32,000 nucleotides of DNA from the NCBI RefSeq assembly GCF_024345995.1, contig NZ_JAGQCE010000003.1, positions 112,759 through 144,758 of the forward strand, written 5' to 3'. Of the stretch, positions 5,440-24,573 are shown in pieces. A model generated the notes under the pieces. The model made no database searches. It had not been told where the DNA came from and saw only the letters and a program-made list of their open reading frames with translations. Numbering within the stretch: the first letter of the stretch is position 1; every line of letters starts with the position of its first letter. A program made the translations under genes and the position numbers. The DNA is from Synechococcus sp. Cruz-7E5. Lineage in GTDB: Bacteria; Cyanobacteriota; Cyanobacteriia; PCC-6307; Cyanobiaceae.

Positions 5440-5440
5440 T

Positions 5441-5876: not shown

Positions 5877-5881
5877 CAACC

Positions 5882-7521: not shown

Positions 7522-7547
7522 CGTGGCCTGCTGGTTGAAGCTTCGCG

Positions 7548-8311: not shown

Positions 8312-10723
8312 TCACACCGCCAACGCCATAACCGGCACGAACGCCCCCGGTATCGCCCTGTGCAACCGCCAGCGAATCGCCATCGGCCGCTCGCCCTCGT
8401 GGCTCACGTAATCGGCAAAACCGAGGCAAAGAAACGGCAGCGTCACCCCGCCGCGCTTGTTCTCCTCCCGCACGAACAGCATCACCCGGCTGCCCCGCTC
8501 GGCGTGGTGGATGTAGCGCTGGCCCGTGGGTGAGGCTTGCCGCGTGTTGCTCTGGCTCTCCCAGTGGAACTCCCACGGGGAGATGGCGTAGTCGTTGTAG
8601 CGGGTGGTGGGGGAGAACAGGCTCTCGGACTTCTTGAGGGTGATGAAGAAGACGTCGCACTGGGTCACCTCATCGAACAACACCCCCTCACGGCCGGGGA
8701 AAGGCCGGGCGTCGTTAAGCAGGCCGAAGGCGGCGAACACCTCGGCGCGGGCATAGCGGCCGTGGAGTTTGAGGGGGATAGGGCTTGGATCGCTTCGGCC
8801 CCAGTCGAGCGGCGCCACCAGGTGGTCGGTGCGCTCGTGCAGGAGCGCGAACAGCTCCAACAGTTCGGCGCGGAGGGCGGCGGCAGCCCAGAGCCGGACG
8901 AGGGCCTCGGCCAGGGGCACGTGCTGCCGGCCGCTTCCCCACAGCTGGGCCATCAGCATGCGCCAGCTGCGCTCGGTGACGGGATCGAAGCCCGCCGGAT
9001 CGGGCGCGAGGTGCCGCTGCAGCTGATCCGCCAGCCAGCGCAACCGCTCGGGGTCATCCAGGTGCAGAAGGCCGCCAGCGATCCCCCGCCCCAGCCGCTT
9101 CTCATCGTCGCTGGGCTCCCCTGAGGCCGCCCCAGCCGCCACCCACCCCAACTCCCGCTGCAGCAAAGCCCACGACCCCGCCACCTTGTAAAACTCCACC
9201 AGCTCCATCCCAAGCCCCTCCAGCAACCCCGTCAGGGAACAGCGCCCGAGGCGCCGGGCTTCGGCGAGCAGCTGGGGCCTGCGCGTGGGCAACGACTCGC
9301 GCAGATTGGCCAGCACCCGCTCGCTCGACACCCGATCGAGCTGCAGGCTGCAGCCGGCCGGCAGGAAAGGAAAGCCCTCTTTGATTTGCTGCTCCAGCTG
9401 GTCGCGCGTGCCGCCGAGCAGGGCGCGGTAGCGCAGATCGAAGCGGAAGCTCCGGTGGGCCTGGCCGATGAAATCCAGCACTGTGAGGCAGCTCTTGCCG
9501 CGGCAGAGGCGCAGACCGCGGCCGAGCTGCTGCAGGAACACGATCGCGCTCTCGGTGGGCCGCAGGAACAGCACTGTGTCGATCTCGGGGATGTCGAGGC
9601 CTTCGTTGAACAGATCCACGGCGAACAGGATCTGCAGCTCACCGGAGCGCAGGCGGCGGATCTGCTCGGCGCGCTGCTCCCGGGGGCTGGAGGCATCCAG
9701 GGAAGCGGCGCGCAGGCCGGCGGCCACGAACTTGCGGGCCATCCAATGGGCGTGCTCCACCCTCACGCAGAAGCCCAGGGCCCGCATCGCTTCCAGGTTG
9801 GTGACCTTGTCTGCCAGTTCGCGCAGGATCAGGCGCAGGCGGGCGTCGTCGGCGGTGTAGAGGTTGGAGAGGGCCTCGGTGGCGTAGCCGTTGCGGCGCC
9901 ACTCGACCTGCGACAGGTCGGTGCCGTCGTGGAGGCCGAAGTAGTGGAACGGGCACAGCAGGCCCTGATCGAGGGCGCTCCAGAGGCGCAACTCGGCGGC
10001 GATGCGGCCGTCAAACCAATGGAGGATGTCCTCGCCGCCGGTGCGCTCGGGGGTGGCGGTGAGGCCCAGCAGCAGGGCGGGTTCTAGGTGGTGCAGCCAG
10101 CGCTCGTAGCTGGCGGAGGCGGCGTGGTGGAACTCATCGACGATCACCACGTCGAACGTGTCCGGCGCCAGGCCGGCCGGATCCAGCCCAGCGAGCGACT
10201 GCACCGAGGCGAACACATGGCGCCACTGGCTGGGGCGCTGGCCATCCACCAGCAGCTCGCCGAAGGAGCCATCGCGCAGCACCTGGCGGAAGGTGGCGAG
10301 GCTCTGCTGCAGGATCTCGCGCCGGTGGGCCACGAACAGCAGGCTCGGGTGACCCGGACCGCCCTGGCGGGCGTAATCAAGGGCGGCGACCACGGTTTTG
10401 CCCGTGCCGGTGGCGGCCACCACCAGGTTGCGCCAGCGGCCATGGAGGCTGCGCTCTGCCGAGAGCTTGTCGAGGATCTCCTGCTGGTAGGCGTAGGGGC
10501 GGATGTCGAAGAAGCTGAGCGGGGTGGCGTCGGACGCCGACTCCGCCTACACCGCCCGATCAAAACGCCGGCCTTCGATCTCGCTGGCGGCGTAGGGCTC
10601 GAATTCGCCTTCCTCCCAGTAGCTGTCGAAGGCGGCCTGGAACTTGGAGAGGACGCCGTCGTTGTCGTGGGCGGAGAGGCGCACGTTCCACTCCAGGCCG
10701 TCGTGCAGGGCGGCGGCCGTTTT
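8312..10723 (-). pseudogene. PLD-like/SF2 helicase/DUF3427 defence-type protein, 5'-truncated with an in-frame TAG
   Basis: Helicase motifs present: 'AATGTGKT', 'VIVDEFHH', 'LGLTATPER', 'QQLGRGLR'. The DUF3427-type C-terminus is 'FITLKKSESLFSPTTRYNDYAISPWEFHWESQ'. Upstream in frame is '..LHDGLEWNVRLSAHDNDGVLSKFQAAFDSYWEEGEFEPY..RAV*AESASDATPLSFFDIRPYAYQQEIL'. The TAG is at 10549-10547. The frame closes at 10724-10726, where GC content drops. Confidence 0.85.
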
Positions 10724-10855: not shown

Positions 10856-11971
10856 ATGACGCTTAAACTTGTGCCTTCAATCTATGAGGTCTACGGGTTC
10901 GGACCAAATGATAATACAGCTGAAGCGCAACAAGCTCGCTTTACTGCAACTTGTCCATTTATTGGCGGCAGGTGCGATGGAGGGGGCAATAGGCATCAAA
11001 CGAAGATAAAGCTAGGAACGTCTCCATTGAGAGATAATTTTGAGCCATCACTTGATTCCGTGGTTCCCGGAATTTGTTCAATTCAACACGGAGGTACAAT
11101 TTGGGTGGTCTGTCCGCGAAGGCTGCTTGGATTTGGCGGGAGTCCCGATTCAGCTCAAGTCAACTATGCACTACAAGAGCATGAAAAAGAAGCACTTCTA
11201 GCCTCAGGTTTGCCGGCTGGTATTGAACTAGGTGTTTGGGCCGAAGTGTACCTTAACTATGGAGACGATGAAACTACAATTAACTACCACTTTGACTTTG
11301 TCATTTCCGAGCTTCATCGGAATGCCAGTTTTCATGAGATGATTGGAAGTTACGGAGCCATTGAAGATGCTGAGCATATTGATCTTGTTGCCGCAGCAAG
11401 AAAGGGGCAGTATATCCAAGGTCGCCTAGATCAAAATGCTCCGATAAGCGTGCTTCCTAATTTACAGCACCCATATATCATTGAAGTAATGACAGCGAGT
11501 ACTTCGGGTTCAGACACAAGTGCTGGAACCGACATAGCATCATCATTCAGTGACGCTATTCTTGGAAGAAGCCACAGTTGTCCGGGTATTAATAAGCGTC
11601 AAGTTTGGGGAAGAATGGCGACCCAGCTATTTGCAAAGTCTGCTTTAGCAGACGCTTGGGGCGGCAAGACTGTTTGGGTTGTTCAAGATGAACTTCTAAA
11701 GAATATAGCATTAACAACAAAGCTTGGAATGATGACTGACGGTAATATTGGAGGCGTTGACAAAATTAGCTTTGTAGGCTTGAGCTATAGAAAAGAAGAT
11801 GAAGATGGATGCTCTATGCAAGTTGTCGGCTTGCATGAAAAGAGGTCTGGACTTGATTTTGCAGGCAGTGGAAAGTGTGTGGATATACTTTTGCCAAAAG
11901 TATATCCATGCAAAAAGGAGTTGCTAAAGTCTGTTCTCAGAAGAAAACTTTCCGCCTTAATAGTACTGTAG
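10856..11971 (+). CDS. Type II restriction endonuclease, NotI-family-like
   Basis: 371 aa, AT-richer than the flanks, and convergent with a C5-methyltransferase 5 nt away. The N-terminal Cys cluster 'CPFIGGRCDGGG...GICSIQHGGTIWVVCPRRLL' and 'IIEVMTAS' resemble NotI 'CPF..C.K...GVC..DWLVCPNR' and 'LEIQTMD' (from memory). Confidence 0.65.
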   Translation: MTLKLVPSIYEVYGFGPNDNTAEAQQARFTATCPFIGGRCDGGGNRHQTKIKLGTSPLRDNFEPSLDSVVPGICSIQHGGTIWVVCPRRLLGFGGSPDSAQVNYALQEHEKEALLASGLPAGIELGVWAEVYLNYGDDETTINYHFDFVISELHRNASFHEMIGSYGAIEDAEHIDLVAAARKGQYIQGRLDQNAPISVLPNLQHPYIIEVMTASTSGSDTSAGTDIASSFSDAILGRSHSCPGINKRQVWGRMATQLFAKSALADAWGGKTVWVVQDELLKNIALTTKLGMMTDGNIGGVDKISFVGLSYRKEDEDGCSMQVVGLHEKRSGLDFAGSGKCVDILLPKVYPCKKELLKSVLRRKLSALIVL

Positions 11972-11976
11972 ATATC

Positions 11977-13077
11977 TCAAGAAATCAGTCGCTTAATCTG
12001 CTCCCCAACTGCATGTGCCAACGGCGGAGGTACAGCATTTGCTACGAGCCGGTGTTGATCAAGGTCCCGCACAGTTCCAGTTCTTGCACGGATCGGTCCA
12101 AAAAGCATATGTGAATCCGGAAAGCCATGTAGTCTCATGTATTCACGCGGAGTGAGATATCTATTGTCGGATGGATGGTAAAAGGCCTCGCCACCCCTCA
12201 ATGTAAGAGCTGGCTTACTCCACGACATTCTCCGAAACTTAGTGGTATCTTTTTCCGGATCAAGCCTCATTCGCTGATCTTTAGGCAAGTGGAATTGCCT
12301 TGCGAGGCATTCGCCTTCGGGAACACCATTGATTCTCTCCTGATCACGTTTTGGAGTGATGTCAACATGGCTAGGAACAACGGGGGTTCCGTCACCCTTT
12401 CTACAGGGCTTTGGCAAGTCCGATATCGCATCGCCAACTGTAAGATATGGAAGCAGATCGTTGAACAGGCTAGTTTGCGCACTGGCCCTGCTTGAATCGA
12501 AATGCGTAGGCTCGGGAAAGTCAAAATCGGTTAAGTCTCTCATCGCCAGTATAATTACACGGTCCCTAAGTTGAGGAGTCCCATAATCAGCAGCTCGAAG
12601 TACGCGGTACTTTACGCAATACCCAATTTCATTGAGCGATTGGATAAGGGATGCAAGAACAGAGCCACTCTTGCCGTCCTTTCCCTTCGCACTGAGTAAG
12701 CCTTTCACCTGTTCAATTAGAACAGCCTTGGGGCGAAAAGCTTTTGCGTATTCCAACATTTGATACAACAGAATACCTCTGTCGTCTTCAACAGATTTTC
12801 TACTACCAATTAGAGAAAAAGACTGACATGGGGGTCCGCCTGCAAGCAAGTCTAGTTCTCCAGATGTGATCCCCAGATCATCAAGCAGTTGGTTAGGCCT
12901 AAAGTCCCGAATGTCCCCGCCAAGCAGGGGGGTTATCCCTTTTTGCTTGCACCAGTGTTGAAGAGTTAGAAAGGCATGTTTGTCGACTTCACTGCAAAAT
13001 ATAGGTGCAAATCCAGCTCTGTGCAGACCCTCATCAAGTCCACCAATTCCACTAAAAAGTGAGATAGCAGTGAGCAC
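11977..13077 (-). CDS. DNA (cytosine-5) methyltransferase
   Basis: Motif I 'LFSGIGGLDEG', motif IV 'GGPPCQSFS', motif VI-like 'IEQVKGL', motif VIII 'QLRDRVI', motif X 'ANAVPPPLA'. Low-GC gene. Confidence 0.95.
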   Translation of the reverse strand: MLTAISLFSGIGGLDEGLHRAGFAPIFCSEVDKHAFLTLQHWCKQKGITPLLGGDIRDFRPNQLLDDLGITSGELDLLAGGPPCQSFSLIGSRKSVEDDRGILLYQMLEYAKAFRPKAVLIEQVKGLLSAKGKDGKSGSVLASLIQSLNEIGYCVKYRVLRAADYGTPQLRDRVIILAMRDLTDFDFPEPTHFDSSRASAQTSLFNDLLPYLTVGDAISDLPKPCRKGDGTPVVPSHVDITPKRDQERINGVPEGECLARQFHLPKDQRMRLDPEKDTTKFRRMSWSKPALTLRGGEAFYHPSDNRYLTPREYMRLHGFPDSHMLFGPIRARTGTVRDLDQHRLVANAVPPPLAHAVGEQIKRLIS

Positions 13078-13277: not shown

Positions 13278-13757
13278 TCAATACCCCTGCTTTCTAGCAA
13301 TTACCCCCCGCACCCCACCCCGCGGCTGCTCGCAATCCCCCTCCCGCCGTGGAATCAGATGCCAGTGCGCATGAAACAACGTCTGCCCCGCCGCCTCGCT
13401 TGAGTTCAGCCCCCCTCATGCGTTGAGCAAACCAGCCCAGCCGCTGATCGTGGCGTCCTGGGCACGCAGCTTGCTCCACCACGGCGTTCCACTCCGGCTG
13501 GTGCAGCTCCAGCCCGTCGGCCCCATGACGACGCGGGATCACCAGGCTGTGCCCCTCGCTCACGGGATAGGCATCGGCGATGCACAGCGCCAGCTCGTTC
13601 TTCAGCAGCACCCGGCCACAGCCCTCCAGCGCGCAGAACACACAGTCCGCTTCGCGGTGGCCGTAGCTGGCCTGCATACCGCGGAAGCAGAACGCCTGCA
13701 GGTTGCTGATGGCGGCGGAACCGCCATGGTTCCTAGGTGCTCCCATATCCAGGGCCA
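13278..13757 (-). pseudogene. HNH-HIT gene fragment A (3' ~480 nt, frameshifted)
   Basis: The minus strand reads '..PRNHGGSAAISNLQAFCFRGMQASYGHREADCVFCALEGCGRVLLKNELALCIADAYPVSEGHSLVIPRRHGADGLELHQPEWNAVVE'. A deletion of about 20 nt and a frame change follow, then 'FHAHWHLIPRREGDCEQPRGGVRGVIARKQGY*'. Confidence 0.7.
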
Positions 13758-13813
13758 AGCTGGGTGCTCTAAGTGCCAGTGTGCATCAATCCGGCGTATA
13801 ACAAGCGGGAAAG

Positions 13814-14686
13814 ATGGTATCCAAAGCGTCTCGAGAAATGGCTACTGACTGGTCAAGAGAGGAAGTCGCAGCAACCGTGGCGGACTACTTCGCCATGCTT
13901 GCTGCTGAACTCTCCGGGGTTCCTTACAATAAAGCAGCTCACCGGCGTGCGCTGATTAAGCGCCTCTCAGTTCGTTCGGCGCAGTCCGTTGAGTTCAAAC
14001 ATGCGAATATCAGTGCCGTACTGATTGACCTGGGATTCCCTTATATTACTGGTTACAAGCCTCGATCCAACTATCAAGGCCTGCTGCATGACGTTGTTTC
14101 CGAGAGGCTTGTATCTGATAGCCAGCTCCTGAATGTTGCGGCCGCAGATGCTGACAGGCCGATCGTGGTGCCGGAAGTTGAAGACATTCTTGGAGTGCTC
14201 ACCACACCTCCAGCCATGCAGTCCGGAGACAAGGAACCTGGTAGAGGAAGTATTCAGGCAACGCGGGCATGTATCTCAGTCAACTACTTGGAGAGAGAAG
14301 CGCGTAATCGCTCGCTTGGTACTGCTGGTGAGCTCTTTGTCTTGAACTTTGAGCGTGCAAGGCTGATCAACCTTGGCAAAGAAAGGCTAGCCGAGAAAGT
14401 CGAGCACACATCGCAAACGCGCGGCGACGGGGCCGGCTTTGACATTCTCTCTTATGAGGAGACTGGCGCCGATAGGCTCATTGAAGTAAAAACAACAAAG
14501 TATGGACGAGAAACTCCGTTCTTCGTGTCCAGAAACGAGCTTGCGGTGTCAGAATCAGAAGCATCTCGTTACTATCTCTACCGTTTGTTTGGATTCAATG
14601 TTAAGCCTCGTCTTTTCACCCTTGCTGGCGCCTTCTCGGAATCATGCAGGCTTTCTCCTTCAAGCTATCTGGCATCCGTTATCTGA
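13814..14686 (+). CDS. DUF3883 domain protein (PD-(D/E)XK-like nuclease C-domain)
   Basis: 290 aa. The C-terminal 'GELFVLNFERARL...DGAGFDILSYEETGADRLIEVKTTKYGRETPFFVSRNELAVSESEASRYYLYRLF' is the DUF3883 core. The N-terminal 'SVEFKHANISAVLIDLGFPYITGYKPRSNYQ' module recurs in restriction-type proteins. GC is lower than in the flanks. Confidence 0.8.
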   Translation: MVSKASREMATDWSREEVAATVADYFAMLAAELSGVPYNKAAHRRALIKRLSVRSAQSVEFKHANISAVLIDLGFPYITGYKPRSNYQGLLHDVVSERLVSDSQLLNVAAADADRPIVVPEVEDILGVLTTPPAMQSGDKEPGRGSIQATRACISVNYLEREARNRSLGTAGELFVLNFERARLINLGKERLAEKVEHTSQTRGDGAGFDILSYEETGADRLIEVKTTKYGRETPFFVSRNELAVSESEASRYYLYRLFGFNVKPRLFTLAGAFSESCRLSPSSYLASVI

Positions 14687-14716
14687 TCTCTTTGATGCTG
14701 GTCTACAGAGCACATC

Positions 14717-15552
14717 TCAATAGCTCCGATGCTCCGCAATCACCCCACGCGCCCCACCTCTCGGCTCCTCGCAATCCCCCTCCCGCCTCGGAATCAGATG
14801 CCAGTGCGGATGAAACACCGTCTGCCCCGCCGCCTCGCCTGAGTTCAGCCTCCCTCTTGCGTTGAGCAAACCAGCCCAGCCGCTGATCGTGGCGTCCTGG
14901 GCACGCAGCTGCTCCCGTCGCAGCTTCAGTAGCTCCACCACGGCGTTCCACTCCGGCTGGTGCAGCTCCAGCCCGTCGGCCCCATGACGGCGCGGGATCA
15001 CCAGGCTGTGCCCCTCGTTCTCCAGCAGCACCCGTCCGCTGTCCTCCAGCGAGCAGAACACACAGCCTGCTTCGCAGTGGCCGTAGCCGGCCTAGACGCC
15101 GCGGAAGTCGGTGCGCCCTCTTGCGTAGGCACACAGCCGTCGCGCTTGCCGGCGTTGCAGCGGAAGCAGAGCGCCTGCAGGTTGCTGATGGGGCCAGAGC
15201 CGCCCTGGTTCCTGGGGATGGTGTGGTCCACCTCCAGGGCCCGATGGTGCTCGCGGAAGGCATCGAGGCGCTGGCGGCAGAGCTCCAGCAGCGCGTCGCG
15301 CTCGCCATCGCTCAACGCGTCGCCGCCGATCAGGCAGTCGTGGCGATCGCCATAGGCGGTGATGCCGATGAAGGTGAACCCGGCCCACCATGCGCTTGCC
15401 AGGATCCGGCAGGCGATGTCCTGCGCTGGGGCCTGGCTGCGGCGGCCCAGCAGCTCCATGAGCAGCAACGCTTGGTCGATGGGGGTCATGCGCATGCGTT
15501 CGGCGATGAACTGCCGCAGGCGCAGGTAGGTGGCGGAGGGGGGCGGGGGCAT
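14717..15552 (-). pseudogene. HNH-HIT fusion gene, most complete copy (B), inactivated
   Basis: N-terminal region: 'MPPPPSATYLRLRQFIAERMRMTPIDQALLLMELLGRRSQAPAQDIACRIL'. HNH core: 'ALEVDHTIPRNQGGSGPISNLQALCFRCN'. A frame change and a TAG follow ('DFRGV*AGYGH'). HIT part: 'CVFCSLEDSGRVLLENE[gap]GHSLVIPRRH...GQTVFHPHWHLIPRREGD..RGGARGVIAEHRSY*'. Confidence 0.75.
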
Positions 15553-15698
15553 GGGGCCATCCTGGCCGGGTGAGACGGGGGTGGCACTTGTAAAGGGAGG
15601 AAACACAGGTCAGCCAGGTCGCCATGTCCAGCTCGCGATCACCCGAGCCCTTTGCCACCGCCTTGCATGCCTACGCACCACGTTGGTAGAGTCTCGAT

Positions 15699-15992
15699 GT
15701 GATCAGGTCGTTTCGTTGCCGCGACACCCAGGCCCTCTTTGAAGGGAAGCCAGGGCGCCGCTTTGGAGGCTTCGCTCGTGTGGCGTTCCGCAAGCTCGCC
15801 ATCCTCGACGCCGCCGGATGCCTCAACGATCTGAAGATCCCACCGGGCAATCGCCTGGAGCCGCTCAGGGGGAACCGCCATGGCCAGCACAGGGCCTGTC
15901 TCTGAAAACAGTGCATCAACGACCAGTTCAGACTCTGCTTTGTCTGGACGGAAGCCGGGCCAGAGGAGGTCGAGATCGTTGACTACCACTGA
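15699..15992 (+). pseudogene. higB: HigB (RelE/ParE superfamily) toxin with in-frame TGA
   Basis: The sequence reads 'MIRSFRCRDTQALFEGKPGRRFGGFARVAFRKLAILDAAGCLNDLKIPPGNRLEPLRGNRHGQH RACL*KQ CINDQFRLCFVWTEAGPEEVEIVDYH*'. The stop at 15903-15905 is in the same frame as both halves. Confidence 0.75.
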
Positions 15993-15996
15993 CGTG

Positions 15997-16281
15997 ATGC
16001 TCGTGCCACCTGGCGAGGTGCTGCTGGAGGAGTTCCTGCGGCCCATGGGAATCAGCCAGTACCGGTTGGCGCTGGCGATCGGTGTGCCGGAGAGCCGCAT
16101 CAACGCGATCGTGAAGGGCAAACGGGCAATCACTGCCGACACCGATCTGCGCCTGTGCCGTTTCTTCGGCCTGAGCGAGGGCTTCTGGCTGCGGATGCAA
16201 GGGAGCCACGATCTGAAGCTGGCGAAGCAGGCCCTGGAAAGCGTGCTGCCGACGATCGAGCCAATTCAGCCAATGTTGTGA
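15997..16281 (+). CDS. higA: HigA antitoxin (XRE-type HTH)
   Basis: 'MLVPPGEVLLEEFLRPMGISQYRLALAIGVPESRINAIVKGKRAITADTDLRLCRFFGLSEGFWLRMQ' is a canonical HigA. The ATG lies 5 nt after the higB stop and is internal to track ORF 15880..16281. Confidence 0.85.
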   Translation: MLVPPGEVLLEEFLRPMGISQYRLALAIGVPESRINAIVKGKRAITADTDLRLCRFFGLSEGFWLRMQGSHDLKLAKQALESVLPTIEPIQPML

Positions 16282-16301
16282 GCACGGGTTGCGGTTCAGT
16301 G

Positions 16302-16502
16302 GCAGCAGCTGGTCGCGCTCGGCGTCGCTCAGCTCTACTGCTACGCAGAAGCCTTCGGCTACGCCGCCCACCAGGGCGTAGGTGCCCTTCTCGCAGCGGG
16401 TGATGCCGTTGAAGGTGAACCTTGCCCACCATGCGCTCCCCAGGATCCGGCGGGCCACGTCCTGCGCCGGGGCCGGTAGGTGGCGGATGGGGGCGGGGGC
16501 AT
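16302..16502 (-). pseudogene. HNH-HIT 5' fragment C (internally deleted)
   Basis: The minus strand reads 'MPPPPSATY[deletion]PAPAQDVARRILGSAWWARFTFNGITRCEKGTYALVGG..ELSDAERDQLL'. Homology ends about 20 nt from the higA stop. Confidence 0.65.
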
Positions 16503-16582
16503 GGAGTGATGGTGGCGGCTGCCGCCCCAGCCCCCACCCAAATACTGATGACAAAAGGCACACAGGGTCTTAGGGTGTTGCC

Positions 16583-16864
16583 ATGAAGCCCTTTCGCTGG
16601 AGCGCAGGCAAGAACGAGGTCCTTCAGCTTCAACGAGGTGTTTCCTTTGAGGCCGTGGTGGTCGCTATCGAATCCGGTGATCTGCTCGACATCGTTGAGC
16701 ATCCGAACCAGGCCCGCTACCCAGGCCAGTGCATTCTTGTCGTTCTGATCTCCGGCTATGTCCATCTGGTGCCATATGTCGAGGCCGACGATCACCTCTT
16801 TCTCAAAACCATCATTCCCAGCCGCAAAGCCACCATCGCCTACCGCCCAGGAGACGCACCATGA
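16583..16864 (+). CDS. brnT: BrnT-like toxin (DUF497-type)
   Basis: 93 aa, 'MKPFRWSAGKNEVLQLQRGVSFEAVV...LKTIIPSRKATIAY'. It is coupled (ATGA overlap) to a CopG/RHH antitoxin of the kind that pairs with BrnT-family toxins. The family call is from memory. Confidence 0.6.
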   Translation: MKPFRWSAGKNEVLQLQRGVSFEAVVVAIESGDLLDIVEHPNQARYPGQCILVVLISGYVHLVPYVEADDHLFLKTIIPSRKATIAYRPGDAP

Positions 16865-17130
16865 ACCCCCTTGATCACGAAGAGCAGGAGATCCTGGAAG
16901 CCTTCGAAGCGGGCACTCTCCGTTCAGTGGCTACGGCTGCAGAGCGCTCCCGCCTGGAAGCCTCCGCAAGGTCAACGGCCAGCAAGGATCAGCGCATCAA
17001 CATTCGCCTCACCAGTGAGGATCTAGGCGCCTTGCGTGCCCGTGCCCTGCAGGAGGGTATTCCCTACCAGACCCTGATCAGCAGTGTCCTTCACAAGTAC
17101 GTGAGCGGCAGGCTTCTCGATCGACCCTGA
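16861..17130 (+). CDS. brnA: BrnA-like CopG/RHH antitoxin
   Basis: 'MNPLDHEEQEILEAFEAGTLRSV...KDQRINIRLTSEDLGALRARALQEGIPYQTLISSVLHKYVSGRL' has the typical C-terminal RHH of this antitoxin family. Confidence 0.7.
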   Translation: MNPLDHEEQEILEAFEAGTLRSVATAAERSRLEASARSTASKDQRINIRLTSEDLGALRARALQEGIPYQTLISSVLHKYVSGRLLDRP

Positions 17131-17152
17131 GCGTGTGGAGCTTCGTGGTTTC

Positions 17153-17219
17153 GGGCGGCCCGTCAGGCTGGCGTCCCTGCTGGGATCTCTTCTGGCGTGG
17201 GCGCGTGGCGGCTGCAGCC
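17153..17219. repeat. Repeat X, copy 1 (matches 19109-19176)
   Basis: 'gggcggcccgtcaggctggcgtccctgctgggatctcttctggcgtggg...gctgcagcc' versus 'gggcggctcgtcaggctggcgcccctgctgggatcccttctggtgtggg...gctgcagcc'. Confidence 0.7.
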
Positions 17220-17289
17220 AACCCGGCTGCGGGTGTGGCTGTGCCGCCCCAGTCCCCTTCAGCCGCAAGACCGGTGGGCAGGCCACGGT

Positions 17290-18056
17290 TCAATACTGCT
17301 GTTTGTCCTTGATGACCGCCCGAACACCTCCGCGGGGGGATTGGTCATCACCTGTTCGCCGGGGGATGTGATGCCAATGGGCATGAAACACCGTCTGCCC
17401 CGCCGCTGATCGAGGCGTCCTTGGCACTGAGCTGCTCACGCCGCTGCTTCAGCAGGTCCACCACAGCGTTCCATCCCGGCTGGTGCAGATCCAACCCATC
17501 GGCCACATGGCGCCGCGGGATCACCAGGCTGTGGCCCGGCGTCACCGGGTAGGAATCGGCGATCCACAGCGCCAGTTCGTTCTCCAGCAGCACCCGGCCG
17601 CTGCCCTCCAGCGCGCAGAACACACAGACCGCCTCACGGTGGCCATAGCTGGCCTGAATTGCAGCGGAAGCAGAGCGCCTGCAGGTTGGTGATGGCGTCG
17701 GAGCCGCCCTGGTTTTTGGGGATGGTGTGGTCCACCTCCAGGGCTCGCTGGTGCTCGTGCGCGCCGCAGCACTCGCGGCGGCCCCGGGCGCATCGGTGAA
17801 CCCTGGATTTCACCGAGCCACTGATCGGGCTGCGGTGGGCAAACACCTCTTCGCCGCGCTGCTCACGGAAGGCATCGAGGCGCTGACGACAGAGCTGCAG
17901 CAGCTGGTCGCGCTCGGCGTCGCTCAGTTCGTCGCCGCCGATCAGGCTGTAGGCGCCGTTGCCGGTGAGCACCTTGCCCACCATCGGCTGCTCAGGATTC
18001 GCCGGGCCATGTCCTGCGCTGGGGCCGGGCTGCGGCGGCATGGCAGATACCGTCAC
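17290..18056 (-). pseudogene. HNH-HIT fragment D (lacks 5' ~40 codons; frameshifted), retains the fullest HNH core
   Basis: HNH part: '..GDELSDAERDQLLQLCRQRLDAFREQRGEEVFAHRSPISGSVKSRVHRCARGRRECCGAHEHQRALEVDHTIPKNQGGSDAITNLQALCFRCN'. After a frameshift: 'IQASYGHREAVCVFCALEGSGRVLLENELALWIADSYPVTPGHSLVIPRRH..'. After a deletion/frameshift: 'GQTVFHAHWHHIPRRTGD..RGGVRAVIKDKQQY*'. Confidence 0.7.
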
Positions 18057-18451
18057 GCCTCAGCGTCGGAACCCGGCATGACCAGCGGCTGCACCCGAGC
18101 GATCAGTTCCTTCACCTGCCGGTTGAAGTCTTCCCGATCCAACCCCAGGGGTGTGGGATCGGCGTCGTAGCGGAACTGCACGGCATAGACGGTGAGTTGA
18201 GCGAGCGGTTGCAGCTTGGCCGTGGCCACTCCCTCGGCCTCCAGCAGCAACAGCAGCCGACGGAGGTCATGGGTGAGCGGCGGGTCTCCGCCGAGCTGTA
18301 AGTACCAGGCTTTGAGCGCCTTCTCCACCGCCTGCTGCAACCAGAAGCCCCAGGCGCCCTCGCGGAACACAGCTGGATCGCTGGAGGCCTCGGCGGTCTC
18401 CAGATCGGCGCTGGCGATCCTCAGCAGTCCTTGCGGCTCAGAGAGCACCAT
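18053..18451 (-). CDS. HEPN domain protein (toxin partner of MNT)
   Basis: 132 aa with 'LQQAVEKALKAWYL', 'THDLRRLLLLLE' and 'VQFRYDADP', the PF05168-type HEPN pattern. It overlaps the upstream MNT gene by 14 nt. Confidence 0.8.
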   Translation of the reverse strand: MVLSEPQGLLRIASADLETAEASSDPAVFREGAWGFWLQQAVEKALKAWYLQLGGDPPLTHDLRRLLLLLEAEGVATAKLQPLAQLTVYAVQFRYDADPTPLGLDREDFNRQVKELIARVQPLVMPGSDAEA

Positions 18452-18794
18452 CCAGCAACCGCCCCTCCCGGAACGCCCTGCCGATCACGTGAGTGCGCCA
18501 CTGGCGCCGTTCCTCGCACTCCCGCTCGGAGTACAGCAGCAGATCCAGCGAAACATCCGCTCGCGCCAGCAGCCCCCACAGCTGATTGAGCACATCGAAG
18601 CGGTTGCGTCCCTCCAGCCAGGCATCCGGGGCCGTGATCAGCAGATCGATGTCCGAGTCAGGGCCAGCGGTGCCCCGGGCCCTGGAACCGAACAGACGCA
18701 CCTCCGAGCCAGGGATCACGCCATGGATCACAGCCGCCATCTTCTCCAGGCGGCTGTCGATCGGTAGCGCAACTGGGGTGTTCATGCCCTGCAT
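18438..18794 (-). CDS. MNT-type nucleotidyltransferase antitoxin
   Basis: 'VRLFGSRARGTAGPDSDIDLLI' is the minimal NTase motif. Confidence 0.8.
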   Translation of the reverse strand: MQGMNTPVALPIDSRLEKMAAVIHGVIPGSEVRLFGSRARGTAGPDSDIDLLITAPDAWLEGRNRFDVLNQLWGLLARADVSLDLLLYSERECEERRQWRTHVIGRAFREGRLLDGAL

Positions 18795-18805
18795 TCTGAT
18801 TCCAC

Positions 18806-19062
18806 TCGCTCGGCGTCGCTCAGTTCGTCGCCGCCGACCAGGCTGTAGGCGCCGTTGCCGTAGGCGGTGAGGCCGTTACCGGTGAGCACCCTGCCCACCA
18901 TCCGCTTCCCAGGATCCGCCGGGCCACGTCCTGCGCCGGGGCGGGGCTGCTCCTCCCTAGCAGCTCCATGAGCATGAGCGGTTGGTAGATGTGGCTCATG
19001 CGTATCCGCTCGGCGATGAACTTGCGCAGGCGAAGGAAGGCAGCAGAGGGGCTGTTGGCCAT
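18806..19062 (-). pseudogene. HNH-HIT 5' fragment E (variant allele)
   Basis: The minus strand reads 'MANSPSAAFLRLRKFIAERIRMSHIYQPLMLMELLGRSSPAPAQDVARRILGS..'. After a frameshift it continues '..GDELSDAER'. Homology ends about 12 nt from the MNT start codon (18794). Confidence 0.7.
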
Positions 19063-19108
19063 GGAGTGATGGTGGCGGCTGCCGGGCGACCGGGCCAGGT
19101 TTGACTTT

Positions 19109-19176
19109 GGGCGGCTCGTCAGGCTGGCGCCCCTGCTGGGATCCCTTCTGGTGTGGGGGTGCTGAGGCTGCAGCCC
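19109..19176. repeat. Repeat X, copy 2
   Basis: See 17153-17219. Here it lies upstream (to the right) of HNH-HIT fragment E, inside a minus-strand coding-looking stretch ('..LADLLQLPGAAAVAVDLIATAKGRGQFLRELLRSGL..'). Confidence 0.7.
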
Positions 19177-19389
19177 ACTCCGCAGCAGCTCGCGGAGGAA
19201 TTGCCCCCTCCCCTTGGCGGTGGCAATCAGATCGACCGCCACCGCCGCGGCCCCAGGAAGCTGCAGCAGGTCGGCGAGGGGTGTCGTGCCCATCGCCCTC
19301 GGCGGGGATGCCTGTGCTGCTCTCGCTCGTTCTCCACCAGAGCGTCCTGCCGCCAGGACAGCTGCAAGGATGCAGTCCAGAATGGGGCC

Positions 19390-19704
19390 ATGGCTGCCCC
19401 TTCGACCCAGGAAACCTCCCTCTCCCAGCGGCTCCAATGCGCCCGCGAGCAGGTGCTTGCCGTGGCTCACCGCCATGGGGCCCGCAACCTGCGGATCTAT
19501 GGCTCGGTGGCCCTTGGCCAGGATCGGCCCGGCAGCGACCTTGACCTACTGGTGGATCTGGAGCAGGGCTGTTCCCTGCTGGAAGTGATCGCCCTGCGGC
19601 AGGAACTGGAAGCTCTCTTGAATTGCCAGGTGGATCTGGCGGAAGCAGCGCAGCTGCATCCTTTGATCCGGGATCAGATCATTACGCAGGCCAAGGCTTT
19701 GTGA
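19390..19704 (+). CDS. mntA: MntA-type nucleotidyltransferase antitoxin
   Basis: 'MAAPSTQETSLSQRLQCAREQVLAVAHRHGARNLRIYGSVALGQDRPGSDLDLLVDLE'. The ATG at 19390 is internal to track ORF 19153..19704. Confidence 0.8.
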   Translation: MAAPSTQETSLSQRLQCAREQVLAVAHRHGARNLRIYGSVALGQDRPGSDLDLLVDLEQGCSLLEVIALRQELEALLNCQVDLAEAAQLHPLIRDQIITQAKAL

Positions 19705-20042
19705 GCAAAGATCTTCTTTACCTCACCAGCATTTCTGAAGCTCTTGAGCGAATCAATCTCTACACCCCTGAAGGCCGCTCAGCTTTCCTTGCTTCCACGC
19801 TTGTGAAGGATGGAGTGATCCGCAACTTGATCATGATCGGCGAAGCCGTGAAGAATCTGTCGGCGGACCTTCGCGAGTCCGAATCGTCCACTCCTTGGAA
19901 GTCCATCGCCGGCATGCGAGATGTTCTTATTCATGATTATTTGCGTGTCAACCTGGAGCAGGTATGGGAAACCGTGGCGCGTGATCTTCCTCCCCCTGGT
20001 CTCACCGTTAGTTCGCTGATTGAGCGGCACATGAACGATTGA
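19701..20042 (+). CDS. hepT: HepT (DUF86) HEPN-type toxin
   Basis: GTG start overlapping the mnt stop (GTGA). 'VSKDLLYLTSISEALERI...GMRDVLIHDYLRVNLEQVW' contains the Rx4HxY motif. Confidence 0.8.
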   Translation: MSKDLLYLTSISEALERINLYTPEGRSAFLASTLVKDGVIRNLIMIGEAVKNLSADLRESESSTPWKSIAGMRDVLIHDYLRVNLEQVWETVARDLPPPGLTVSSLIERHMND

Positions 20043-20045
20043 GCT

Positions 20046-20118
20046 GCAAAGCCAGCATCGCCTACTACCCAGGAGTCCCACCATGAACCCCCTGGATCAC
20101 GAAGAGCAGGTGATCCTG
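20046..20118 (+). pseudogene. Scar of a brnT-3'/brnA-5' junction (deleted brnTA cassette)
   Basis: The 73 nt 'gcaaagccagcatcgcctactacccaggagtcccaccatgaaccccctggatcacgaagagcaggtgatcctg' match 16824-16896 with about 7 mismatches. They include the stop/start overlap and 'MNPLDHEEQ'. Confidence 0.7.
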
Positions 20119-20123
20119 CGCTC

Positions 20124-20375
20124 GCGGCACTGCTGCAGCAGCGCGTCGCGCTCGGCGTCGCTCAGGTCGTCGCCGCCGATCAGGCTGTCGCGGCCATCGC
20201 CACAGGCAGTGATGCCGCTGCCCAGGATCCGGCGGGCCACGTCCTGCGCTGGGGCCGGACTGCGGCGGCCCAGCAGTTCCAGGAGCAAGAGCGGTTGTTC
20301 GATGGGGCTCATGCGCATCCGCTCGGCGATGAACGCGCGCAGGCGAAGGAAGGCAGCAGAGGGGAGCGGGGGCAT
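20124..20375 (-). pseudogene. HNH-HIT 5' fragment F
   Basis: The minus strand reads 'MPPLPSAAFLRLRAFIAERMRMSPIEQPLLLLELLGRRSPAPAQDVARRILGS[del]GITACGDGRDSLIGGDDLSDAERDALLQQC'. Confidence 0.7.
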
Positions 20376-20450
20376 GGGGGCATCCTGGCTGAGGTGTGAC
20401 GGGGGTGGCTGGCATTGGTACGTTGCCCAGAGGGCCAGCAGAATGGACCC

Positions 20451-20768
20451 ATGACCCGGACAGCACCGCCAACCCCTCTCACGGCCGAAGAGGTGCTCAA
20501 CCGCCTCCGTCAGCGCCAGCCGGACTGGCACCGCCGATTTCATGTGGTGGAGCTTGGCTTGTTCGGCTCCGTTGCCCGCGGCGATGCCCGCCCAGACAGC
20601 GATCTCGATGTCTGGGTCCAGCTCGACCCTCTCACTCCCTACGCCCTGGTGCACTTGAAACAGGAGCTGGAAGAGCTGATGCAGTGTCCCGTCGACCTGG
20701 TGCGCCTGCGGGAGCGCATGGCCCCAACCCTCCGAAAGCGTATTGAGCAGGAGGGGCTCACGGCGTGA
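20451..20768 (+). CDS. mntA: MntA-type nucleotidyltransferase antitoxin
   Basis: 'MTRTAPPTPLTAEEVLNRLRQRQPDWHRRFHVVELGLFGSVARGDARPDSDLDVWV'. The start choice (20451 versus 20415) is uncertain. Confidence 0.75.
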   Translation: MTRTAPPTPLTAEEVLNRLRQRQPDWHRRFHVVELGLFGSVARGDARPDSDLDVWVQLDPLTPYALVHLKQELEELMQCPVDLVRLRERMAPTLRKRIEQEGLTA

Positions 20769-21123
20769 CGGAGGACCAGAAGGATGTCCTGTTGAGCCTC
20801 CTGAGCGCGCTCAAGCGTGCCCAGCGCAAATCCAGGTCTCTGATTGTCAATCCTGAGTTGCTGGATCAGGAGGAAGGAGAAGATGCTCTGGATGTGATCT
20901 GTATGCAGTTCCTCGCAGCCGGTGAATCTTTGAAGCGTTTGGAGCGCCTGTATCCTGACCTCCTACAGAATCGTTATCCCCATATCGACTGGGAAGGGGC
21001 CATGGGGTTCCCGATGTCATCGCTCACCAGTATTTTGATCTTGATGTTGAACAAATTCTTGTCATCTGTGAACAGTCGCTGCCCGGCATGATCCATGCGG
21101 TTCAAGACCCGTTGGAGAACTGA
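20765..21123 (+). pseudogene. hepT: HepT (DUF86) toxin with a frameshift at the catalytic Rx4H motif
   Basis: The first frame reads '..YPHIDWEGAMGFPMSS..'. From 21013 a second frame reads 'DVIAHQYFDLDVEQILVICEQSLPGMIHAVQDPLEN*', ending at 21123. The expected 'MGFRDVIAHQY' is broken inside the Arg codon. Confidence 0.75.
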
Positions 21124-21200
21124 CGAATCGGCACCACGTAGCTCATGCGCGATGGCATCCATCTCTCCAGTTCCTTTGCCCCCTTTTGACCGTGCCTACA

Positions 21201-21317
21201 GTGAGTCCTTTGCTGCTACCGCCGAGCGAGCGGCTGGCCTTGGCGATCGCCCTGTGGGACAGCCCCGAAGCGGCTGTGCCCTGGGATGAGGTGCGGAGCC
21301 AGCTCGGCATCGGATGA
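21201..21317 (+). pseudogene. Truncated addiction-module antitoxin-like peptide
   Basis: A GTG-started 38-codon ORF, 'VSPLLLPPSERLALAIALWDSPEAAVPWDEVRSQLGIG*'. The 'L.P.ERL.L...LWDS' block resembles the N-terminus of the 'putative addiction module component' family. No partner gene is present. Confidence 0.4.
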
Positions 21318-21379
21318 CTCCGCCCTCAGTCCACCTTCTACCTGAGGCGGTGGTGGATCTGCTGGAAACGCAGCGCTGC

Positions 21380-21440
21380 TGGATGCGGAAGGGGCGGGGG
21401 CATGGGGGCATCCTGGCGGGGTAAGCCGGGGGGCACTTTC
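21380..21440 (-). repeat. HNH-HIT start-codon/leader scar G
   Basis: 'gggcgggggcatgggggcatcctggcggggtaagccggggggcactt' matches the ATG-plus-leader region of copies B (15541-15591) and F (20364-20418). Only a few codons of the ORF remain. Confidence 0.5.
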
Positions 21441-22847: not shown

Positions 22848-23023
22848 CTCGGCAAAGCCGTTCTGCCTCAGGGATCCTGGCTCGATGTCGGCGGTGGTAC
22901 GTGGGCTGTTGTGTCACCTCGATGACGCGACAGACGTTGGTGACGGTCTTGCCCCGGGCGATCAGCTGCTCAAGATTTGAGCTTGCGGATGATCTGCTCG
23001 GGTGTGTGGCGGATTCGTTTCAT
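22824..23023 (-). mobile_element. IS3-family remnant (orfA N-terminus joined to orfB C-terminal motif)
   Basis: The minus strand from the ATG at 23023 reads 'MKRIRHTPEQIIRKLKS*'. After a frameshift it reads 'EQLIARGKTVTNVCRVIEVTQQPTYHRR'. It then jumps to 'RQNGFAESFNDRLRN', the DDE transposase C-terminal signature. Most of the element is deleted. Confidence 0.6.
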
Positions 23024-23085
23024 GGTGGTGTCCCCGCGGCACATTCAGGCCCATAAGATGCGGCCACGGCCGGGGTCCAGCAGTT

Positions 23086-23853
23086 GTGACTGAGGTCCTG
23101 ATCCTCCTTCTTGCCGGCGCGGCCGGTGCCTTTCTGAACACGGTGGCGTCCAGCGGATCGGCGATCGTGATCCCGATCCTCATCGCGATCGGGCTGGAGC
23201 CGGTCATGGCCAACGCCTCCAACCGGCTGTTGATCGTCGTCGGCTGCGCCACCGCCGTCTGGCGCTTCCATCGCGCCGGCCTTCTTCCCTGGAACGATGC
23301 CCTGCGCTTCACGATCCCGGCGGTGCTCGGGGCGGCCTGCGGCGCACTGCTCGCGTCGGTGTTCGGCGATCTGCGCACGACCCAGCTCGTCACCGTCGCC
23401 GTTGCGCTCACCCTGGTCGTCGTTCTGTTCAACCCCACCCGCTGGCTGGCCGCGGATCGACCCCAGCAGGAGCCCGAGCGGGGGCCTCTGGCGTTGGCAC
23501 TGATGGCGCTTGTCGGGGGGTGGGCCGGCCTGATCGCGGTTGACTCCGGTACCTACGCCCTGGCGGTCCTGGTGCTGGTGGCCCACTTCCCAATCCGGGA
23601 AGCCAACGGGATCAAGGTCACGGTCCTCGGCGCGGCTGCCCTGACCTCGTTGCTCATCTTCTCCGGCCAGGCGGAGGTCGACTGGCGGTCGGGCCTGATC
23701 CTCGCGGCGGGCAGTGTGCTGGGTGCCTTGCTCGGGGCGCAGCTTGCCCTTGGGCCCCATGCCGCGAAGTGGGTGTTTCGAGTTCTCGTCCTGGTCCTGG
23801 TGATCGAGATGGTGCCCCTCATCGTCAGGTTGCTGGGGTCCCTGAGCATCTGA
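23086..23853 (+). CDS. TauE/SafE (DUF81) family anion exporter
   Basis: Polytopic membrane protein starting 'VTEVLILLLAGAAGAFLNTVASSGSAIVIPILIAIGLEPVMANASNRL'. The GTG start at 23086 is inferred; the track ORF begins at 23002. Confidence 0.8.
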   Translation: MTEVLILLLAGAAGAFLNTVASSGSAIVIPILIAIGLEPVMANASNRLLIVVGCATAVWRFHRAGLLPWNDALRFTIPAVLGAACGALLASVFGDLRTTQLVTVAVALTLVVVLFNPTRWLAADRPQQEPERGPLALALMALVGGWAGLIAVDSGTYALAVLVLVAHFPIREANGIKVTVLGAAALTSLLIFSGQAEVDWRSGLILAAGSVLGALLGAQLALGPHAAKWVFRVLVLVLVIEMVPLIVRLLGSLSI

Positions 23854-23944
23854 CCGCTGGCCCCAAGGGCAGGATCCTGATGGCGGCCTTCATTGCTGCC
23901 GACCGCCTGAGACAATCCACCCTCGCCCGTGCCCAGCGAAACAG

Positions 23945-24469
23945 ATGTCCGTTCTCGGCAGAGAGGCGATCCTGCAGGCGATCGAAGCGGGCACGATCGG
24001 GGTGACGCCGTTCGTTCCAGAGCGGCTGGGCCCCGCCTCTCTCGACCTCACCCTCGCCGGCACCTTTCGCGTGTTCCGCAAGGTGCACGCGGTGATCGAG
24101 GTGCGCGAGCACACCGACTACCGGCAGCTGACCGAGAAGATCAAGGTGCCCCAGGGCGAGCACATCCTGATCATGCCGGGCGAGACGGTGCTCGGCATCA
24201 CCCAGGAGCGGCTGCGCCTGGGCCCCGGTCTGTGCGGCTGGCTGGAGGGTCGCAGCCGTTTCGCGCGGCTTGGCCTGATGGTGCACATCAGCGCCCCCTT
24301 CATGGGACCGGGGATTGACAGCCAGCAGGTGCTGGAGATGAGCAACTTCGGCCCCGCTCCCCTGGCCGTCTATCCCGGCACCGCGATCTGCCAGTTCGTG
24401 TTTCAGAAGCTGGTGGGCAGCGAGATCTATGCCGGCGGCTTCGCTGGCCAGACGGAGGACTCCTTCTGA
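23945..24469 (+). CDS. dcd: dCTP deaminase
   Basis: 'MSVLGREAILQAIEAGTIGVTPF...SLDLTL...GWLEGRSRFARLGLMVHISAPFMGPG...AICQFVF' shows the dUTPase-fold Dcd pattern. Confidence 0.9.
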   Translation: MSVLGREAILQAIEAGTIGVTPFVPERLGPASLDLTLAGTFRVFRKVHAVIEVREHTDYRQLTEKIKVPQGEHILIMPGETVLGITQERLRLGPGLCGWLEGRSRFARLGLMVHISAPFMGPGIDSQQVLEMSNFGPAPLAVYPGTAICQFVFQKLVGSEIYAGGFAGQTEDSF

Positions 24470-24573
24470 CCATTCCCAGCACCCGCCTCGACTGTCGGCC
24501 GTGATCACCTACCGCGACCGGTGCATCCGATTGATTTCCGTTCGGCGGTCCAGAGCAGAAGAGGTGGAGCTCT

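Follow-up and report, generated by a model that had tools for sequence, protein, structure and literature searches.

A repeat-rich region was analyzed in a stretch of 32,000 nucleotides (nt) of the Synechococcus sp. Cruz-7E5 genome (contig NZ_JAGQCE010000003.1), hereafter called the window. Between positions 13278 and 21438 it contains seven co-oriented minus-strand pieces of one gene encoding HNH and HIT domains, interleaved with small gene cassettes. The pieces, here designated A to G, were placed by tblastn with an intact 333 amino acid (aa) ortholog (P0002), their leaders and starts were placed by blastn, and domains were assigned with Pfam. All seven had been named in the original prediction, which was made from the letters alone, and the searches recovered each of them at the predicted position or a few bases off it. 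Open reading frame (ORF) listing, repeat finding and self-BLAST likewise resulted in several direct-repeat families at 13.3-21.4 kb. Comparison with relatives supports the array being one instance of a clade-wide, two-sided architecture, which extends the earlier reading and does not correct it.

HNH-HIT pieces and the cassettes between them

The window pieces belong to a family of ~333 aa that combines an N-terminal domain with HNH (PF01844) and HIT (PF01230), and both Pfam domains were matched in pieces A, B and D. At the DNA level, any two pieces were 64-90% identical. That every copy is inactivated, as had been predicted, is true for this window: tblastn and alignment showed deletions and frameshifts (the latter in B, D and E among others), all copies are pseudogenes and no intact HNH-HIT copy is present. 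Several pieces still carry one of two upstream regions, U and L2, which are described further below.

Piece A (13278-13761) is a displaced 3' fragment with codons 159-333 and the stop codon; it is frameshifted and was matched at 13281-13761 in two frames (tblastn E 2e-61). Piece B (14717-15600) consists of an L2 leader and a full-span HNH-HIT pseudogene (14720-15552, E 7e-57), of which aa1-210 and aa195-333 are found in two frames. The alignment showed that B is frameshifted and lacks ~40 HNH codons, including the first zinc-binding CxxC, as well as ~13 HIT codons. Piece C (16291-16540) holds an internally deleted U, the leader and codons 1-9 and 37-107, the former codons being matched by blastn up to position 16504 and the latter by tblastn at 16291-16485 (E 8e-8). 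Piece D (17290-18041) had been predicted to be a 3' fragment, which it is not: it is a near-full copy that kept its own ATG (18041-18039, 11 nt past the stop codon of a HEPN gene) and its stop codon, and lost codons ~4-37 according to the alignment. The tblastn match to D (17293-18046, E 4e-55) was split into aa34-53, 68-190, 195-286 and 295-333 in three frames, with at least three frameshifts. The same spacing between HEPN stop and ATG was present in four other genomes, and D was 85-97% identical to the copy in related locus L036. Piece E (18806-19062) holds codons 1-107 and is frameshifted past ~codon 53 (18788-19050, aa5-107, E 6e-35, as aa5-53 and aa66-107 in two frames); it had 91.5% identity with the main gene of L069. 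Piece F (20118-20409) comprises an L2 leader and codons 1-109, as seen in the alignment and by tblastn (20118-20375, aa1-109, E 5e-26). Of piece G (21391-21438, blastn) only an L2-type leader, the ATG and ~4 codons remain, the remainder being deleted; it was 88% identical to the leader and start of B over 50 nt (E 1e-11) and 93-95% identical to leaders of L058, L040 and L007.

Pieces C and D independently lack about the same N-terminal codons (~4/10 to 37; 16465-16504 in C and 18033-18041 in D), and ~30 fragments of other genomes likewise start at aa31-50. These recurring losses suggest a deletion hotspot at the proline- and GC-rich start of the gene.

All cassettes named in the original prediction were borne out by Pfam, among them HigBA, BrnTA, HEPN/MNT, MNT/HepT (twice) and DUF3883. 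Between A and B lies a DUF3883/NOV_C gene (13814-14686, plus strand; Pfam NOV_C 7e-21), which matched the PADLOC candidate defence gene PDC-S36 (1e-109); the whole unit of gene 3' end, DUF3883 gene and 3' fragment was found at 94% identity in L067 and L079. A HigB/HigA cassette follows B (15699-16281, plus strand; HigB-like 4e-7 over a partial model, HTH_3 6e-9). Its higB (15699-15905) is frameshifted and encodes 68 aa versus ~92, with a full-length homolog in other loci. The BrnT/BrnA cassette (16583-17130, plus strand; Pfam BrnT_toxin and BrnA/CopG antitoxin) is joined to a U element that lies after the stop codon of D (17146-17257, minus strand). About 112 nt of this element are present; in other units a full U plus leader directly precedes the ATG of the gene.

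The next cassette, MNT/HEPN (18053-18794, minus strand; HEPN 3e-16, NTP_transf_2 2e-10), is in sense orientation with the pieces and was present at 88-93% identity in L075, L053, L011 and L060. In the alignment its ATG is located 13 nt past the break of E (18794-18807) in the same orientation, which leaves no room for a promoter of its own, and its transcription would probably depend on the region upstream of E. The junction of E with MNT/HEPN recurred in L011 and L024. Upstream of E, a U element with leader (19063-19186, minus strand) is 5'-truncated by a microhomology deletion and had 83% identity to 17150-17230.

Beyond it lies an MNT/HepT cassette (19350-20042, plus strand; Polbeta/NTP_transf_2 and HepT-like 1e-23; the MNT start is approximate). 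It is followed by the predicted brnTA scar (20042-20118, plus strand), which is real: the 3' end of brnT and the first 12 brnA codons are fused to the broken end of F, with 90% identity to 16820-16896. A second pair (20415-21091, plus strand) consists of an MNT antitoxin (20415-20768, NTP_transf_2 1e-13) and a HepT-like toxin ORF (20765-21091). This hepT is frameshifted at the catalytic region and had no Pfam match; it is full-length in L070, L053, L066 and L040. Both decayed toxins (higB at 15699-15905 and hepT at 20765-21091) are accompanied by antitoxins that are apparently intact. The last cassette before G is a decayed one, the remnant of a putative Unstab_antitox-like antitoxin gene with an internal deletion (21186-21378, plus strand). 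Its ORF at 21186-21317 resembles a recurrent cassette ORF by eye, PF09720 was matched by cassette ORFs elsewhere, and its 121-nt core was found at 18 places in other loci. The segment 21258-21378 had been considered as the 3' flank of the HNH-HIT gene; this was rejected, as it is part of the antitoxin-gene remnant.

By family, the window cassettes are type II toxin-antitoxin modules (HigB/HTH, BrnT/BrnA, HEPN/MNT, HepT/MNT) with predicted toxicity. As the original prediction had it, they occur on both strands. The antisense ones retain ~45-70 nt of cassette-specific upstream sequence, which probably holds a promoter of their own.

A two-sided module at one chromosomal site

A second anchor is encoded at 8312-10720 on the minus strand, a SauUSI-like type IV restriction helicase with ResIII, Helicase_C and DUF3427 (Pfam). 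SauUSI enzymes are type IV restriction enzymes with a PLD nuclease, a helicase and DUF3427 (PMC3141236). The anchor shares the latter domains with them, and the helicases of relatives matched the PADLOC model mREase_IV over its whole length (E 4e-258), with a weak or faint Pfam match to PLDc_2. The window copy matched mREase_IV (PDLC03659) with 3e-198 over model positions 244-933 only, and by tblastn over aa241-1052; it lacks the first ~240 residues, the region of the weak PLDc_2 matches in relatives. Unlike SauUSI, the anchor is constantly paired with the HNH-HIT gene and is truncated in the window; its activity on modified DNA is predicted. Downstream of the helicase, at 2142-7524 (minus strand), lies a mirror array, which corresponds to the first array implied by the original prediction and in which helicase 3'-end fragments (repeats D1, D2, D5 and D8) alternate with PIN, MNT/HepT, Fic and HEPN cassettes identified by Pfam. 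Eight tblastn high-scoring segment pairs correspond to ~6-7 pieces in this array, most of which reach aa1052 or the stop codon. Such helicase 3'-fragment arrays were found in 11 related loci, where many fragments reach the stop and are truncated at the 5' side.

The slot between the helicase and A is occupied by an insert of low GC content (10856-13077, 43-48%), the single low-GC patch (11-13 kb) in a window of otherwise ~62-67% GC. It encodes a 371-aa ORF (plus strand), without a match in Pfam, NCBIfam, PADLOC or plasmids, and a C5 cytosine methyltransferase (minus strand; Pfam DNA_methylase 2e-57). A 29-nt near-perfect palindrome (11880-11908) is located at the 3' end of the 371-aa ORF, immediately ahead of the methyltransferase gene that converges on it, and could act as a terminator for both genes or as a regulatory site. 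The methyltransferase insert adjoins the N-truncated helicase and all HNH-HIT copies are dead; a newly acquired 5-methylcytosine methylase may have been in conflict with the resident methyl-dependent system. Judged by its sequence, the defence module is dead in this genome, with no intact HNH-HIT copy and a helicase lacking its N-terminal ~240 residues.

The island starts just right of SelO (8-1894) and ends at ~21.8 kb, from where the sequence is again homologous to core genes of the closest relative; the first gene identified beyond this point is of the TauE family (23002-23853). A core gene at 23825-24508, which had no Pfam match, borders the island in 17 loci, and SelO does so in 5. The island occupies one chromosomal site, between this conserved core gene and SelO. 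In the 32-kb window neither tRNA or tmRNA genes nor Rfam matches were found, and no integrase or transposase families were present among the scanned window ORFs.

Relatives were collected by a scan of one genome per species, which returned 76 loci, all picocyanobacterial by sequence; the tblastn counts given here cover 77 non-redundant loci (Cyanobium, Synechococcus 5.2, Vulcanococcus). A protein search with HNH-HIT resulted in 1034 homologs, typically of 333 aa, in Cyanobium and Synechococcus. The picocyanobacterial locus was also present in records titled Microcystis elabens, Mesorhizobium, Rhizobium, Acidovorax and Bordetella (L011, L051, L063, L069, L072), which are likely mislabelled or contaminated bins. 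The conserved layout consists of HNH-HIT, a variable gene (GmrSD or SLFN-type helicase) and a 1052-aa PLD-helicase-DUF3427 protein, with toxin-antitoxin pairs outside both ends. The two outer edges of the module are formed by the 5' end of HNH-HIT, together with U or L2 upstream of it, and by the 3' end of the helicase; the variable slot lies between the two genes.

The 77 loci contained 53 full-length HNH-HIT copies and 238 further fragments, with at least one extra fragment in 60 loci and up to 11 in a single locus. All HNH-HIT hits were on the strand of the main gene. In L073, helicase 3' fragments and SelO are on the strand opposite to the HNH-HIT pieces, and part of that island appears to be inverted. 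Most fragments (63%) start at codon 1-10, and these retain the native upstream region; their ends are spread from aa27 to aa333 and pile up at ~aa95-130 and 185-200. Gaps between fragments cluster at 0.6-1 kb and are usually ~0.7 kb. The arrays are not assembly artefacts, since they were present in a complete chromosome (Cyanobium sp. BSA11S) and in several isolate genomes.

DNA single-linkage clustering of the spacers gave one cluster due to shared leader and fragment remnants; the ORFs of 194 spacers were clustered instead, 95 recurrent representatives were scanned against Pfam, and searches were run per cassette. The 95 representatives matched 37 families. The 25 of these that were listed are almost all type II toxin-antitoxin families, including BrnT/BrnA, HigB, HepT/MNT, PIN/VapB, PIN_2, DUF5615/DUF433, DUF6883, HicA, PemK/MazE, ParE, TacA/GNAT and Unstab_antitox, and no recombinase was among them. 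Each cassette type has one fixed orientation relative to the fragments, and therefore the cassettes travel with their flanks and do not transpose.

Upstream regions, junctions and foreign origin

The U element, a non-coding stretch of ~150 nt (U plus leader), immediately precedes the ATG in some 20-25% of gene copies. An alignment of more than 60 copies showed 80-99% conservation, above that of the adjoining coding sequence, and a sharp 5' edge adjoining a conserved G-run motif (GGGnnnnGGGACTGGGGCGG). More than 100 sense-strand copies were found in 45 loci, and ~30% of them are solo copies without a gene fragment behind. Roughly half of all copies, B, F and G among them, have L2 (TTACAAGTGCCACCCCC...CCAGGATGCCCCCATG) upstream instead, and the remaining ones have other upstream regions; helicase-side arrays are without U. 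The original prediction had sorted the 5' fragments into two allelic types, and the two classes exist (C and E versus B, F and G), but they are alternative upstream regions, both widespread in relatives. As fragments and full genes carry the same mix of upstream types, this argues that the fragments are former full copies. U was also evaluated as a structured RNA or attC-like fold and rejected (alifold energy -0.6; fold z-score -1.05; covariation no better than in shuffles). Carriage by phages was rejected as well: viral contigs contained neither the HNH-HIT family (generic HNH matches only) nor U (four exact 18-mer matches were short chance matches). The promoter scan gave no sigma-70-like promoter, and terminators were below shuffled expectation.

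Several deletions through short repeats could be observed directly. The left join of higBA to the U leader is an 8-nt microhomology (GCCGCCAGC), across which a solo U was formed. The leader of C is a U with a large internal deletion, GGGGCTGGGGCGGCA being fused to GCCGCCACCATCACTCCATG, and the U of E is 5'-truncated as described above. The F unit, in which aa~110-111 is fused to brnA codon 12 and followed by hepT-mnt, also occurs in L069, L011, L034 and L071 with different neighbours, and its undeleted precursor (gene-U-brnA, then hepT-mnt) has been kept in L046 and L029. The two sides of higBA differ. On its right side, the L2 leader and gene start were found in 11 of 12 loci; the left side, joined 0-25 nt past the higA stop, has varied partners: HNH-HIT pieces broken off at aa78, aa98, aa107 or aa277, a further cassette, the U leader and, in two loci (L014 and L046), sequence of the helicase side. 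A largely constant right side with several left partners would point to an anchor on one side only, and the junction patterns are compatible with a homologous anchor combined with an illegitimate join.

The original prediction ascribed different origins to the fragments on account of their leader types. The leader types alone are insufficient for this, but comparison across genomes confirmed the claim. For A, B, C and E the best match in another genome had 87-92% identity, and the best match within the window 75-82%; because the nearest kin of these pieces are in other genomes and not in the window, they are not recent in situ duplicates. Cassette polymorphism among relatives with an intact gene, the absence of which would have spoken against the prediction, is rampant, and so neither of the two refuting conditions set by the prediction applied. 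By flanking core genes, L009 is the closest relative (91-95%); it has an intact gene and two fragments and none of the window's cassettes.

The cassettes are closer to those of other genomes than the core flanks are. The brnTA cassette was 95.7-97.7% identical in five genomes (L016, L051, L049, L036 and L053), the core flanks of which had 84-91% identity to the window, and near-identical brnTA cassettes occupy different array contexts in other genomes. The first mnt/hepT (19350-20042) was present at 89-93% in eight other loci and the second (20415-21091) at 93-97% in L070, L053, L066 and L040; for the cassette-sharing genomes as a whole, the core flanks had 84-93% identity to the window. Sliding identity showed that L016, L051 and L053 share with the window only U, brnTA and a truncated U (95-100%), with unrelated DNA on either side: identity rises from ~45% to 95-100% right at the edge of U and drops past the cassette. 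L036 and the window have a longer block, D-U-brnTA-C, in common.

Growth of the arrays

The explanation towards which we lean slightly is that recombination anchored by homology, and illegitimate in part, brings in a cassette while the old edge of the gene is displaced, after which deletions would erode the fragments and addictive cassettes would survive. DNA from another strain, in which a cassette is located next to a copy of the gene edge, would recombine homologously within the gene, and its far end would join illegitimately or by microhomology slightly outward (homology-facilitated illegitimate recombination, or 'sequential displacement'). The incoming edge would complete the gene, and the resident edge would be displaced outward and truncated with its promoter side kept. 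Repeated rounds would result in units of a 5' fragment and a cassette. Once direct repeats are present, RecA recombination could exchange, reorder and delete units within and between genomes, and useless fragments would be eroded by microhomology deletions. Between direct repeats only cassettes that punish their loss, such as toxin-antitoxin pairs, would persist; the near-exclusive toxin-antitoxin content follows if RecA loops out any cassette between direct repeats, leaving the addictive ones. The slot, which is not flanked by repeats, holds non-addictive genes (GmrSD, SLFN-type helicase, methyltransferase). Both the one-sided anchor and the survivorship account of toxin-antitoxin enrichment are what we infer from these patterns. 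With the scale tipping only a little that way, the region would be a decayed instance of a recombination hotspot common to freshwater and brackish picocyanobacteria.

Several points weigh against this displacement mechanism. It is reconstructed from end products, and no recombination event was observed. Fragment length did not fall significantly with rank from the intact gene (rho -0.14, p 0.13), and so a simple order with the newest fragment next to the gene is unsupported. The marine relatives RS9909 and RS9917 (L002/L003) have toxin-antitoxin cassettes at both module edges (8554-9756 and 16193-19252) and no fragments, so cassette gain does not always leave a scar. The higBA left joins at aa107, aa98, aa78 and the U leader have the same last 13-25 nt of cassette flank and probably derive from one insertion by later deletion, which reduces the number of independent illegitimate joins; others of the left junctions are independent. 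Further, at least five unrelated cassette ends meet U within ~3 nt of one position, which is tidier than random illegitimate joining predicts, and the model leaves unexplained why U is conserved above the adjoining coding sequence and persists as solo copies.

These features of U would be accounted for if the repeated gene edges were a selected, integrase-free cassette platform. U or L2 together with the first ~100 codons would then serve as a promoter for sense cassettes and as a portable homology arm, which RecA could use to take up toxin-antitoxin and defence cassettes, to exchange them and to pass them on within the population. We consider such a platform, including the role given to RecA, unlikely; if true, it would explain the conservation of U above the gene, the sharp edge common to unrelated cassettes and the solo copies. 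In a variant of it, an unknown recombinase or the structure-prone G-rich motif at the U edge would start the events.

A close variant of the displacement mechanism is Campbell-type cycling, in which neighbouring fragments recombine, a circle of fragment and cassette leaves, and the circle, once transferred, re-integrates by a single homologous crossover. A crossover into any gene copy would duplicate a fragment, and no illegitimate step would be needed past the first unit. The layouts E(1-107)-cassette-D and C-cassette-B show the overlapping duplication of a single crossover, all repeats are direct, as excision needs, and whole units with the same broken end recur, such as 'aa~111 / brnA scar / hepT-mnt' in five genomes with differing neighbours. 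Cycling can, however, neither make the first truncated fragment nor import a cassette that is not already beside the gene. In addition, one and the same cassette can follow very different fragment ends, and in L014 and L046 it is part of a helicase-side array, the repeats of which differ; circular forms were not observed. As the main source of the arrays, cycling is improbable.

The tidy U edge could also point to a dedicated site-specific system, in which a recombinase encoded elsewhere inserts cassettes at the U or L2 edge in an integron-like manner. Besides the sharp 5' edge, where the unrelated cassette ends join beside the G-run motif, the conservation and solo survival of U would fit such a system, as would the compact cassettes, usually a single toxin-antitoxin pair. 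We regard it as distinctly unlikely, since most gene copies carry L2 or another upstream region in place of U, U has no conserved fold and is missing from the helicase-side arrays, the left ends of the cassettes are spread over 0-25 nt, some of them being simple microhomology joins, and neither the scanned window ORFs nor the listed recurrent array families included an integrase or transposase.

Still less probable is a silent-copy reservoir comparable to pilS or orphan Rhs tips, in which the fragments would be kept as gene-conversion donors that vary the putative DNA-binding N-terminal domain of HNH-HIT and the C-terminal DUF3427 sensor domain of the helicase, with toxin-antitoxin pairs stabilising the store. 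The parts covered by the fragments coincide exactly with the terminal domains of both enzymes, and DUF3427 is a modification-sensing domain (PMC6765204). An AlphaFold model of the intact ortholog had a mean predicted local distance difference test score (pLDDT) of 49.6, and only its N-terminal ~117 residues, moderately confident, look winged-helix-like in this low-confidence model. Fragment ends accumulate near the domain borders (~aa 95-130 and 185-200), but this may simply mark where tblastn alignments stop. Many fragments are frameshifted or just 9-40 codons long, and they retain promoter and start codon, unlike classical silent copies. Among intact genes the N-terminal domain is conserved, with many invariant columns at residues 20-52, and not hypervariable.

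Local tandem duplication followed by divergence and later cassette insertion is scarcely credible: all copies are direct repeats at one locus, and A, B and D span the stop codon, but the fragments have their best matches in other genomes and not among themselves, the array of the closest relative is much shorter and different, and random decay of tandem copies would not favour the 5' edge.

The displacement mechanism has a precedent, having been proposed for the effector-immunity arrays of the Vibrio type VI secretion system (T6SS) and for Rhs orphans (Kirchberger, 2017; PMC5361080). As in the arrays of Rhs, contact-dependent inhibition (CDI) and T6SS, a gene is accompanied by truncated copies in the same orientation, which have kept the outer edge and are separated by small cassettes, although here the 'intact' copy has itself decayed; the proposed homologous anchor, illegitimate join and subsequent homologous exchange, without involvement of an integrase, are likewise common to both. 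Such displacement arrays are said to have been described in Jackson 2009, a work cited within Kirchberger 2017. The picocyanobacterial arrays, in a cyanobacterial host, differ in that their repeats are conserved HNH-HIT or DUF3427 sequence and not polymorphic toxin tips, and in that their cassettes are autonomous type II toxin-antitoxin pairs and not cognate immunity genes. They grow from both ends of a two-gene module, with 5' fragments on one side and 3' fragments on the other, and the fragments look like by-products and not like a usable store.

Chromosomal integrons (IntI, attI, attC) are similar in having long arrays of short cassettes set apart by a repeated element, toxin-antitoxin cassettes that are thought to stabilise the array, and an array-side promoter that can drive sense cassettes; in the window, E would read into MNT/HEPN in this way. 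Unlike integrons, no IntI or other integrase was found among the scanned window ORFs or the listed spacer families, the repeats are sequence-conserved gene fragments in place of structured attC sites of variable sequence, and U has no supported fold. The cassettes also occur in both orientations, the antisense ones with their own upstream sequence, and have boundaries that are not nucleotide-precise. The island differs from tRNA-targeting islands (tycheposons) by the lack of a tRNA or tmRNA gene in the 32 kb and of an integrase among the scanned ORFs, and from pilE/pilS silent cassettes by fragments that keep upstream region and start codon and are often frameshifted. Defence-island hotspots between core genes, for example the immigration control region of E. 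coli, typically show clean replacement. The present island resembles them in its fixed site and in a content of defence and toxin-antitoxin genes that varies among strains and includes genes for type IV restriction; it differs in that the anchor genes are repeatedly duplicated in part, leaving a readable record of successive events.

The kind of process, namely displacement arrays and hotspots, is thus already known. The new aspects are that the array is two-sided and built on the edges of a type IV restriction module, that it contains toxin-antitoxin cassettes, that it is prevalent among picocyanobacteria, and that a conserved U element accompanies it. No account of this architecture was found in the full-text literature, the coverage of which was incomplete, so that this is weak evidence of novelty.

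Defence and toxin-antitoxin islands are known to collect at hotspots, and the present one bears on how they may grow without mobile-element machinery: each event seems to have left a datable scar in the form of a displaced gene edge. As more than 70 genomes share this layout, it becomes readable in which order acquisitions followed each other, where they came from and how they were joined. The arrays suggest a rule by which only addictive genes persist between direct repeats; this would explain the dominance of toxin-antitoxin pairs, perhaps in superintegrons too. Culturable strains of Cyanobium and Synechococcus make the mechanism accessible to experiment. As far as can be told from gene content, the locus also points to a widely conserved partnership between HNH-HIT and a SauUSI-like type IV enzyme in these ecologically important picocyanobacteria.

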